Virus record (IMG/VR): IMGVR_UViG_3300020045_003670
Location: 1-42,857 of that record
DNA: 42,857 bases
Origin: a virus
Lineage: Duplodnaviria > Caudoviricetes
Direction: 5' to 3' (one strand)
The stretch's first letter is position 1, and every line of letters begins with the position of its first letter. The translations under genes were made by a program, and so were the position numbers. Of this stretch, positions 432 to 12,190 are shown piece by piece. The notes below the pieces were generated by a model. The model saw only the letters and a list, made by a program, of their open reading frames with translations. It searched no databases and was not told the origin of the DNA.

Positions 432-473
432 AACGAAAATGGCCCGCGCAAAGTTACAAGCTTTGCGCGGGCC
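432..473 (-). terminator. Intrinsic terminator for leftward transcription (timm-like)
   Basis: Perfect 13-bp inverted repeat GGCCCGCGCAAAG 441-453 / CTTTGCGCGGGCC 461-473, followed on the - strand by ATTTTCGTT. Confidence 0.6.
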
Positions 474-642
474 GAGATGGAAGCGGTTTGACCTTCGGAA
501 GTTTGCCGCCCCATAGACAGATTTGTTATATCATAACATTCTCGTCATTCAAGCAAAACCTCCGAAACGAGTTTCAGATCTCAAAAAATCTGGGCATACG
601 TGCAGGTTCTGTCGCGAGCTCTCTCGGGCAAGCCTTCATGGG

Positions 643-888
643 TAAGGCATAAGTCAGTTCACGCGGGCTAGGACGGCCCTGAATGCCCCGCAAGGGTGGA
701 TAAACGACGTAAGTGGTGAGGTCTGGCGGCAACGCCAATCTACCGGGAGCGCAGGCCCCTAAGTTCCCCAGCGAGCTTGCTGGACACAGCCTGGTCGATA
801 ATGCGTGAGCTGGTTAGCGTCTGTCTATGGAATACGACGGGATTGATGTGAGTACCTCACCCACCGTCTATAGATTAACTATGCCTTG
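643..888 (+). ncRNA. Candidate large structured ncRNA of unknown family (immunity region)
   Basis: No ORF of 60 aa or more in any frame from 515 to 957; closing helix 644-651/880-887; 14-bp helix 652-665/802-815; two GCAA tetraloops; several more hairpins; G-U pairs indicate the + strand. Confidence 0.65.
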
Positions 889-1005: not shown

Positions 1006-1212
1006 ATGAGAACACGGAGAAACGTGCTGCAAAACATGTCTATCGCGATACTTGCCTCAACATCGGATTCTGACGCGGCAATATCCGACAAACTGGACGT
1101 TCCAGAATTATCTGAGCTGCTGAAACGAGCCTTGGAAAAGCGGACAGGGGAATCGTGGATAAGATTAGAAGATTCCGATGGTGAATACATACTCTTCAAA
1201 AGAAGAGTCTAA
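1006..1212 (+). CDS. Hypothetical protein (68 aa), convergent with repressor
   Basis: ORF with GAGGG SD before ATG 1006; lies in an AT-richer segment. Confidence 0.5.
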   Translation: MRTRRNVLQNMSIAILASTSDSDAAISDKLDVPELSELLKRALEKRTGESWIRLEDSDGEYILFKRRV

Positions 1213-1213
1213 A

Positions 1214-1537
1214 TCACCCGGTTTCTTGCAACTGTCGCAGCAGGCGAATTGCAAGCTCCTTATTTTTGTCGTTGAGCAACCGCACCAGGTCGATCACATC
1301 ACCTGCCTTGTATGGGTTGACGCCGATCATATCTGACGGCGTGCATTGGTATGCCTCAGCCGCCGCTTCTAGGTCGTCTTGATTATACGGCGTCTTTTGA
1401 TTTTCGATCCGGCTGAATTTTGACTGGGACCACCCAAGCCGTCCGATCGCCTGTTCTTGCGTCAAGCCGCGATACTCCCGCCACTCCTTAAAGAAGTGCT
1501 TAGTCCGAGTTCGCTTTGGTTTTGGCACTGGCGGCAT
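1214..1537 (-). CDS. cI: CI-like XRE-family HTH repressor (107 aa, no peptidase domain)
   Basis: KEWREYRGLTQEQAIGRLGWSQSKFSRIENQK is an HTH_3 motif; divergent from a cro-like gene. Confidence 0.85.
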   Translation of the reverse strand: MPPVPKPKRTRTKHFFKEWREYRGLTQEQAIGRLGWSQSKFSRIENQKTPYNQDDLEAAAEAYQCTPSDMIGVNPYKAGDVIDLVRLLNDKNKELAIRLLRQLQETG

Positions 1538-11716: not shown

Positions 11717-12190
11717 AGCTGCCGATTTTGACTTAAGGCGGCGATGACAAATTAGCCCGAACGGGCAACGCTATCAGCCACAGCAACGCAACGTGATCAC
11801 AAAACTGCCTGCTGTTAGGTTGGTATAGAGGCCCGGTAGTGTTAGCGCACTGCCGGGCCGGCTTGTTTCTAGAGAGAAACAATGAAGCATATTCGCCCAA
11901 TCGGGCAACTCAGTTTGGGATGGCGAGCAGTAGGACTGCTGGAGCAGGGCAGCCGGAAGCCTGTTCGATAATTTTTGGGGATAGCCCAAGGATTTCACCT
12001 CGGAAGCTCCTCTCGTCATTCCAAAACCCAACACGCCTCTTAGCAACGGGCAACAAGCTGAGTGTCGGCCTAATGCGTCGGGCTGATAACTGCCACTAAT
12101 CGGCGCATCTGCGGTTTGAGGATACCGTTATCAAATAGCAAAAACCTCACAAGCTTTCGCCCGTCGTCCTCGCAAGTGGCGGGTTTTTCA
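11717..12190 (+). ncRNA. Candidate large structured ncRNA / late leader RNA of unknown family
   Basis: Nested helices 11720-27/12098-105, 11737-41/12090-94, 11751-60/12078-87, 11908-16/12055-63 and 11917-27/12012-22, plus six or more local hairpins. Confidence 0.6.
12159..12188 (+). terminator. Putative intrinsic terminator (tR'-like)
   Basis: GCCCGTC 12159-65 / GGCGGGT 12178-84 followed by TTTT. Confidence 0.5.

Follow-up and report, generated by a model that had tools for sequence, protein, structure and literature searches.

The window analysed here, a stretch of phage DNA of 42,857 nt, carries a member of an RNA family that we judge to be real, undescribed and of the ornate phage RNA kind. 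A preliminary description had drawn a large structured RNA at 643-888, on the plus strand of the slot that separates the cI stop from the leftward early promoter. Its kind and strand are supported, and the conserved unit reaches beyond these limits, to about position 474. Judged from the alignment of its homologs, the structured RNA is real, and both larger and more knotted than had been drawn (Table 1). A 52-pair model on a 34-row alignment is 90.4% paired and 25 of the 52 pairs have changed on both sides, so that covariation, which the preliminary description had proposed as a check, is present. None of 500 shuffles reaches the model and slid controls are 33-48% paired, the shuffle controls being inflated by the relatedness of the aligned sequences.

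Table 1. Features of the RNA cassette and its surroundings in window coordinates
Feature	Position	Strand	Basis or remark
Predicted large structured RNA, ~345 nt	541..887	+	Start predicted from -10 box, end from cassette boundary
Leader hairpin	574..593	+	69.5% paired
5' domain helix	600-605/634-639 (600..639)	+	94.9% paired; 5/6 pairs with both-side changes, 20 sequences
P2	652-665/802-815	+	74% paired, both-side changes
Hairpin 666-668/676-678	666..678	+	Loop 670-675 pairs with 3' tail 865-870 (pseudoknot 1)
Variable hairpin, GCAA-type loop	684..698	+	Alignment, 52-pair model
Invariant helix closing inner domain	705-708/794-797	+	34/34
Pseudoknot 2, long-range near-invariant helix	713/862 and 715-722/854-861	+	97% paired
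Covarying hairpin	724..737	+	4/4 pairs with both-side changes
H-type pseudoknot 3	745..793	+	Stem 745-747/758-760; loop 752-756 pairs with 789-793; stem-loop 763-787 inserted
Alternative local hairpin	836-840/864-868 and 848-852/856-860	+	91% and 79% paired
Long imperfect palindrome centred on promoter	494..566	both	Arms co-vary between phages
Promoter boxes in palindrome	-10 box 529-534; -10-like 530-525 and -35-like 552-547	+; -	Putative function
Hairpin of predicted small leftward RNA (~518 to 441)	478..513	-	Loop repeats 11-nt leader motif
Intrinsic-terminator-like hairpin	441..473	-	Kept in empty-site relatives
Accessory cassette: small RNA hairpin, two-way promoter, large RNA	474..887		L303 versus L299/L300 alignment
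68-aa ORF, twin-arginine-like N terminus	1006..1212	+	Neighbour, not obligatory partner
cI-like repressor gene	1214..1537	-	Convergent with large RNA

A knotted and largely invariant core

All helices of the preliminary description can pair in the window sequence, and the homologs uphold several of them (paired shares are cells over the 33 homologs other than the window). P2 and the CGAC/GTCG helix closing the inner domain both stand, and the hairpin at 769-782 is retained in the 52-pair model. The pseudoknot that had been drawn between 752-756 and 789-793 is 91% paired with strong covariation, and it is right because single pairs clearly covary: among 34 sequences pair 753-792 is A-U in 19, G-C in nine and C-G in six, and pair 754-791 is G-C in 16, A-U in 12 and U-A in five. 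The stem 745-750/763-768 proposed beside it is 48% paired and gives way to 745-747/758-760 (99/99 cells). For the extended stem at 715-744, the inner part 724-728/733-737 holds (81%) and the outer part (70%) is replaced by the long-range helix 715-722/854-861; likewise, the three-part stem at 823-875 keeps its inner element 836-840/864-868 (91%) and loses its outer one at 823/875 (44%). The closing helix P1, 644-651/880-887, is 56% paired, with cognate ends at -9.9 kcal/mol versus -9.7 for non-cognate ends, and as a conserved helix it was rejected (z < -1.64 in 5/33).

Two long-range pairings had been overlooked. Pseudoknot 1 is 95% paired, and its flank pair 670-870 covaries (A-U 18, U-A three, G-C two, G-U two, unpaired nine). 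The long helix of pseudoknot 2 shows one both-side change, in L026. The 5' domain upstream of 643 also covaries, in the helix 600-605/634-639 and in the leader hairpin. Since 705-708/794-797 never varies, it has no covariation proof, and the same invariance leaves the partners of the core helices in general unproved by covariation. Around three invariant short helices, the joining residues A702, A704, A711, A788, A798, U799 and A800 are themselves invariant (34/34).

The 3' tail can enter either pseudoknots 1 and 2 or the alternative local hairpin (836..868), which compete for it, and GACG occurs at 672, 706 and 836, each copy being able to pair with the single CGUC at 865. Rough energies, with initiation and loop costs left out, are about -30 kcal/mol for the long-range helices versus -13 for the local hairpin. 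This hairpin does no better than shuffles when considered as a selected switch, with z < -2 in only 1/34 sequences (300 shuffles of the upstream strand).

The plus-strand fold of 643..888 was recovered (z -2.40, with 1/200 shuffles as good, versus z -0.36 on the minus strand), yet its energy is not special: folding energy alone proves little, because three of 47 246-nt tiles elsewhere in the window reach z <= -2.4. Nested-fold z over the 33 homologs averages -0.75 on the plus and -0.74 on the minus strand (12 shuffles each), which does not separate the strands. The strongest fold among the 47 sampled tiles lies at 11800-12045 (z -3.95, 12 shuffles). As had been stated, 515-957 is free of ORFs of 60 aa or more. 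A conserved reading frame was not found across the loci, where spacer lengths vary modulo 3 and downstream peptides of 9-77 aa lie in differing frames; a candidate peptide after an SD-like GAGG was rejected, its start codon being present at 24/34 loci and absent from the window.

Family, cassette and promoter

In a blastn search four Rhizobium phages share the region at 72-74% identity, and in each it occupies the slot that follows the repressor gene. Scanning viral, genome and metagenome collections by pattern, with candidates sorted by profile (true matches at least 92 bits, chance matches below 13 bits), yielded 34 distinct cores including that of the window, with a mutual identity of 46-99.5%; the window core is 48-79% identical to the others. 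Carriers are mostly Rhizobiales phages and prophages. Eight of 14 genome-collection loci were true, seven of them in Rhizobium, Mesorhizobium, Neorhizobium or a Rhizobiales isolate; the eighth, in a bin labelled Pseudobdellovibrionaceae, is a near-repeat of L024 and is probably a misplaced sequence. A plasmid search found no homologs. A covariance model of the RNA core retrieved no more distant members from the family, Mesorhizobium and viral samples: model R1 matched two of 151 genomes in one family sample, both previously in the set, and two of 151 in the Mesorhizobium sample, one known already and the other a partial match of 24.5 bits that was rejected. In a looser viral scan (44/64 parts; 10 loci from contigs already known left out), L289 was, among the matches listed, the sole gain from 146 sources scored, and it repeats L124. 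One further homolog search gave three known contigs and another none.

The family is rare. Where whole records were searched there is one copy per record, with the exception of one Rhizobium assembly that holds two (L138 and L140), their far-upstream DNA being different. In these two loci and L013 the 5' region, some 150-330 nt upstream of the core, is of a third type that has neither the palindromic promoter nor the small RNA. The Rfam search that the preliminary description had proposed returned no match (Rfam 15; whole window; 300-1300 at E<=10), and on 13 homolog loci it gave 11 matches, of which the sole one to the core was snoRNA sR30 (15.6 bits versus a gathering score of 38, E 9.7). 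The family did not come up in literature searches or in four of the six supplementary files of PMC10690425 (motifs and contig ids), and it may still be among that paper's candidates.

Six loci (L007, L010, L120, L152, L156 and L165) form a divergent clade in which the core is kept and the 5' domain is longer; where the flanks allow, the RNA's neighbours are RusA, methylase and initiator genes in the same orientation. A conserved, apparently structured 5' extension about 240 nt upstream of the core would perhaps bring the RNAs of these loci to ~500 nt. L156 and L165 (two of the six, two of all 34) carry a tRNA-like, CCA-ended domain inside the RNA, at L156:1123-1257 (-, 135 nt) and L165:2781-2891 (+, 111 nt); the window RNA is without one. 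By eye the insert site corresponds to the leader hairpin at 574-593, and it is enclosed by a 12-bp stem. Both inserts have an acceptor stem, a T arm and CCA, lack a normal anticodon arm and are unrelated to each other. ARAGORN reports no tRNA or tmRNA in the window or in 33 loci; in the Rfam scan, only the L156 and L165 inserts score weakly. The L156 insert has G3-U70 and A73, the alanine identity, and matches the ends of tmRNA with E 7e-8 (Rfam model); it also shows a possible loop-loop pairing. Because the inserts differ while their flanks match, this position suggests an exchangeable cargo slot.

The strand is indicated by G-U cells at Watson-Crick-majority pairs, which number 99 versus 40 A-C cells (counted per pair this evidence is weak, 17 versus 14), by a plus-strand TAnnnT box at 529-534 in 22/24 loci, and by the tRNA-like inserts, which lie on the same strand. 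L165 has a terminator-like hairpin right after the RNA 3' end in the sense of the RNA; in the window no plus-strand terminator follows the large RNA. From these sequence features, 541-887 would be transcribed from the -10 box within a putative two-way promoter, whose palindrome folds about equally on the two strands (mean z -2.8 and -2.9, 24 loci). The long palindrome and a leftward hairpin within the block are present in 24 of 28 main-clade loci. An 11-nt motif has exactly two window copies, 494-504 and 556-566, which are inverted and change together between phages. Because of this inversion, the loop of the predicted small RNA is same-sense with the large RNA leader and complementary only to cI read-through, at 566-556, where cognate beats non-cognate pairing in a permutation test (0/5000) and mismatches are G-U on the minus strand in 34 cases, G-U on the plus strand in 17 and other in 15. 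No cognate pairing of the small RNA to the large RNA was detected (-21.1 vs -21.8 kcal/mol). With the motif same-sense and cognate pairing absent, a type I antitoxin role of the small RNA against the large one was rejected; the motif was likewise rejected as a cI operator, since by eye it does not track cI type (L024, L005, L026). Repeated ATGCAT-type palindromes at 340-354, 373-384 and 1600-1620, overlapping two early promoters, are likely repressor operators.

In L299 and L300 the terminator and the downstream DNA are the same and a similar small ORF is present, and what is missing is exactly the block equal to 474-887; L303 has a short GCCT microhomology at both cassette ends. Such clean empty sites in close relatives make 474-887 an accessory cassette independent of ORF 1006-1212. 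The hairpin at 441..473 lies outside it, as the empty-site relatives also have it, and would end both cI read-through and the small leftward RNA. The suggested partnership of the RNA with ORF 1006-1212 fails, in that relatives of the ORF occur at only about 7/34 loci and are present at both empty sites. The ORF has no Pfam or PHROG hit, and a protein search returned the ORF itself and no related viral loci. Small ORFs of this family are convergent with cI in several phages and, from the N-terminal twin-arginine-like motif as seen by eye, the product is possibly an exported exclusion protein. Scanning confirmed a convergent cI-like gene at 15/28 main-clade loci, often ending within ~30 nt of the RNA 3' end; among the main-clade loci scanned, the exceptions are L015 (an Arc-like gene), L135 (another gene) and L129 and L166 (no family hit). 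One of nine relatives of the cI gene carries the RNA. L301, whose repressor, promoter palindrome, terminator and small ORF are similar, holds a different ~450-nt stretch in the slot (L301:3170-3680, -), for which no Rfam or phage match was found (fold z -0.47); the slot beside the repressor may take several RNA cassettes.

Possible roles of the RNA

We tentatively favour, as possible rather than probable, a role in trans: the ~345-nt three-pseudoknot RNA would benefit phage or lysogen by acting as a decoy or scaffold towards an RNA-binding machine of the host. This role is argued by analogy to GOLLD and ROOL. It fits best because the RNA, with a predicted promoter of its own and an invariant knotted core, has no fixed protein neighbour and no reverse transcriptase in five of five records, is freely gained or lost as a block, and optionally carries tRNA-like cargo; its occurrence in two genomic settings is further support. 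Transcription would start from the -10 box at 529-534, and the 3' tail (854-870) would fold back locally at first, before engaging in the long-range pseudoknots; these would shield the 3' end without a terminator. Contacts swapped between molecules could give oligomers. A conserved partner in the host, most plausibly an enzyme directed at tRNA or the ribosome, would bind to the invariant surface at 702-713, 788 and 794-800, and the leader hairpin would serve as the cargo slot, from which host RNase P and 3' nucleases could excise the cargo.

The main rival to the decoy or scaffold is a new ribozyme class, which we consider unlikely, with the invariant double-pseudoknot core cutting RNA and thereby making its own ends or freeing tRNA-like cargo. 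Invariant joining residues around invariant short helices, a helix order matching a glmS-type double pseudoknot, the missing plus-strand terminator in the window and two members with processable inserts all speak for such an activity. They have to be set against models that find nothing (glmS RF00234, 0/3 records searched at E <= 10, with positive controls detected; RNase P RF00010, no match at E <= 10), the absence of counterparts to the glmS catalytic G and G1, and the fact that host RNase P could explain the inserts without a phage ribozyme. Distinctly improbable, in our estimate, is an RNA-only module in which a ribozyme with a glmS-like core and a different active site would mature itself and free interchangeable tRNA-like decoys (one with alanine G3-U70 and a tmRNA-like 5' end), blunting trans-translation or those host defences that target tRNA; a palindromic two-way promoter and a mimic small RNA would control the module. 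Lysogeny control in cis or by antisense, where convergent transcription, palindrome and small RNA tune cI mRNA stability or termination, appears quite unlikely. P4 CI and lambda OOP exert antisense-type control of their targets, and control of this kind would account for the palindrome and the small RNA, its loop complementary to cI read-through, as well as for the convergent cI-like gene. It leaves unexplained the core in the divergent clade, where the six loci are equally conserved with no cI neighbour seen (three are short contigs), and antisense action needs no invariant knotted core. Also against it are the small RNA's lack of cognate pairing to the large RNA, the eight of nine cI relatives without the cassette, and the C4 model (RF01695), which finds no match, the small RNA motif having no third copy in the window.

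Two further readings concern the cassette as DNA or as a passenger. That it is a selfish, non-autonomous mobile element, its RNA moved by a protein in trans, is very unlikely in our view: the clean empty sites, the GCCT microhomology in L303, hairpins near both ends and two different genomic settings would be expected of one, and yet most carriers use the same slot with the single copy per record noted above, no end repeat common across loci was seen by eye, and reverse transcriptase (PF00078) was found in 0/5 records, which likewise speaks against a retron or RT-associated ncRNA. We give least credence, as scarcely likely at all, to a DNA-level or replication element (origin, cruciform or primer RNA), a role the preliminary description had raised. 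The palindrome's equal folding on both strands agrees with it, as does the failure to detect a tyrosine integrase or serine recombinase in the near-complete or complete carriers G304 and G306, and for the palindrome alone it could hold; pseudoknot covariation with G-U wobble nevertheless indicates RNA, an integrase-bearing carrier phage has its replication genes about 5 kb away, and relatives lack the cassette.

The family is small enough to synthesise and is found in cultured Rhizobium phages and lysogens, and it comes with natural controls in the empty-site relatives and in variants with and without the tRNA-like insert; the function of large ornate phage RNAs thereby becomes directly testable. 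If the invariant core were catalytic, it would represent a new ribozyme class.

Comparison with known RNAs

As a temperate-phage non-coding RNA near, or acting on, lysogeny control, the RNA resembles P4 CI/P1 C4, lambda OOP and BTP1 STnc6030, the last of which gives superinfection exclusion (10.1101/787010). In contrast to these RNAs, the large RNA does not run antisense to a gene along its length, and the small RNA motif is same-sense with the leader. RNase P RNA has an invariant bulged U and a conserved 3' joining strand. The likeness to it is loose and lies in closing helices, in a long-range helix from which a pyrimidine bulges at 714, and in the tRNA-like sequences of some members; in contrast to RNase P RNA, bulge 714 is U in 22, C in 11 and G in one of 34 sequences, and the joining strand before 854 is variable.

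The crossing helices lie in the same apparent order as in glmS, two of them being invariant and the correspondence drawn by eye: P2, 705-708 and 713-722 appear to match the glmS order P2.2-P2.1-P2. As in glmS, GACG and then a purine run precede the long helix, with UCGA on the opposite strand (residues from part of PMC11602151; the double-pseudoknot core is described in parts of PMC11602151 and PMC8495972). Unlike glmS, the RNA has no counterpart of the catalytic G (Bsu G42, Tte G40), of G41 or of G1: the equivalent positions 712, 711, 710 and 660 are A, A, variable and variable, with A711 in 34/34 and A712 in 31/34 at the G41 and G42 equivalents, A in 29, T in four and C in one at the A40 equivalent, and no conserved G1. 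It also differs in a 70-nt insert in the core and in not lying upstream of a glmS gene.

The structures of GOLLD and ROOL, oligomeric cages made of RNA only, have been solved; to our knowledge neither has a known function. The GOLLD model (conserved 3' domain) matched 0/5 records at E<=10, with control genomes also below the cut-off, and the ROOL model matched 0/5 records and 0/14 controls and was also absent from all-family scans. In GOLLD the 3' part is conserved and the 5' part varies, with a tRNA sometimes in the linker (10.1101/2024.12.08.627333), and ROOL has three pseudoknots (PMC5737381). Compared with both, our RNA is much shorter (~345 nt, perhaps ~500 in the divergent clade, versus 581 and over 800), lies at the cI end outside tRNA islands, with no ARAGORN gene at the 33 loci, and brings a palindromic promoter and a small RNA; unlike those of GOLLD, its inserts are tRNA-like without a normal anticodon arm. 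With GOLLD it shares the layout just described, its 5' part being of three domain types by eye and its optional insert tRNA-like, and like GOLLD and ROOL alike it is a large, multiply pseudoknotted phage or prophage RNA without a fixed protein partner.
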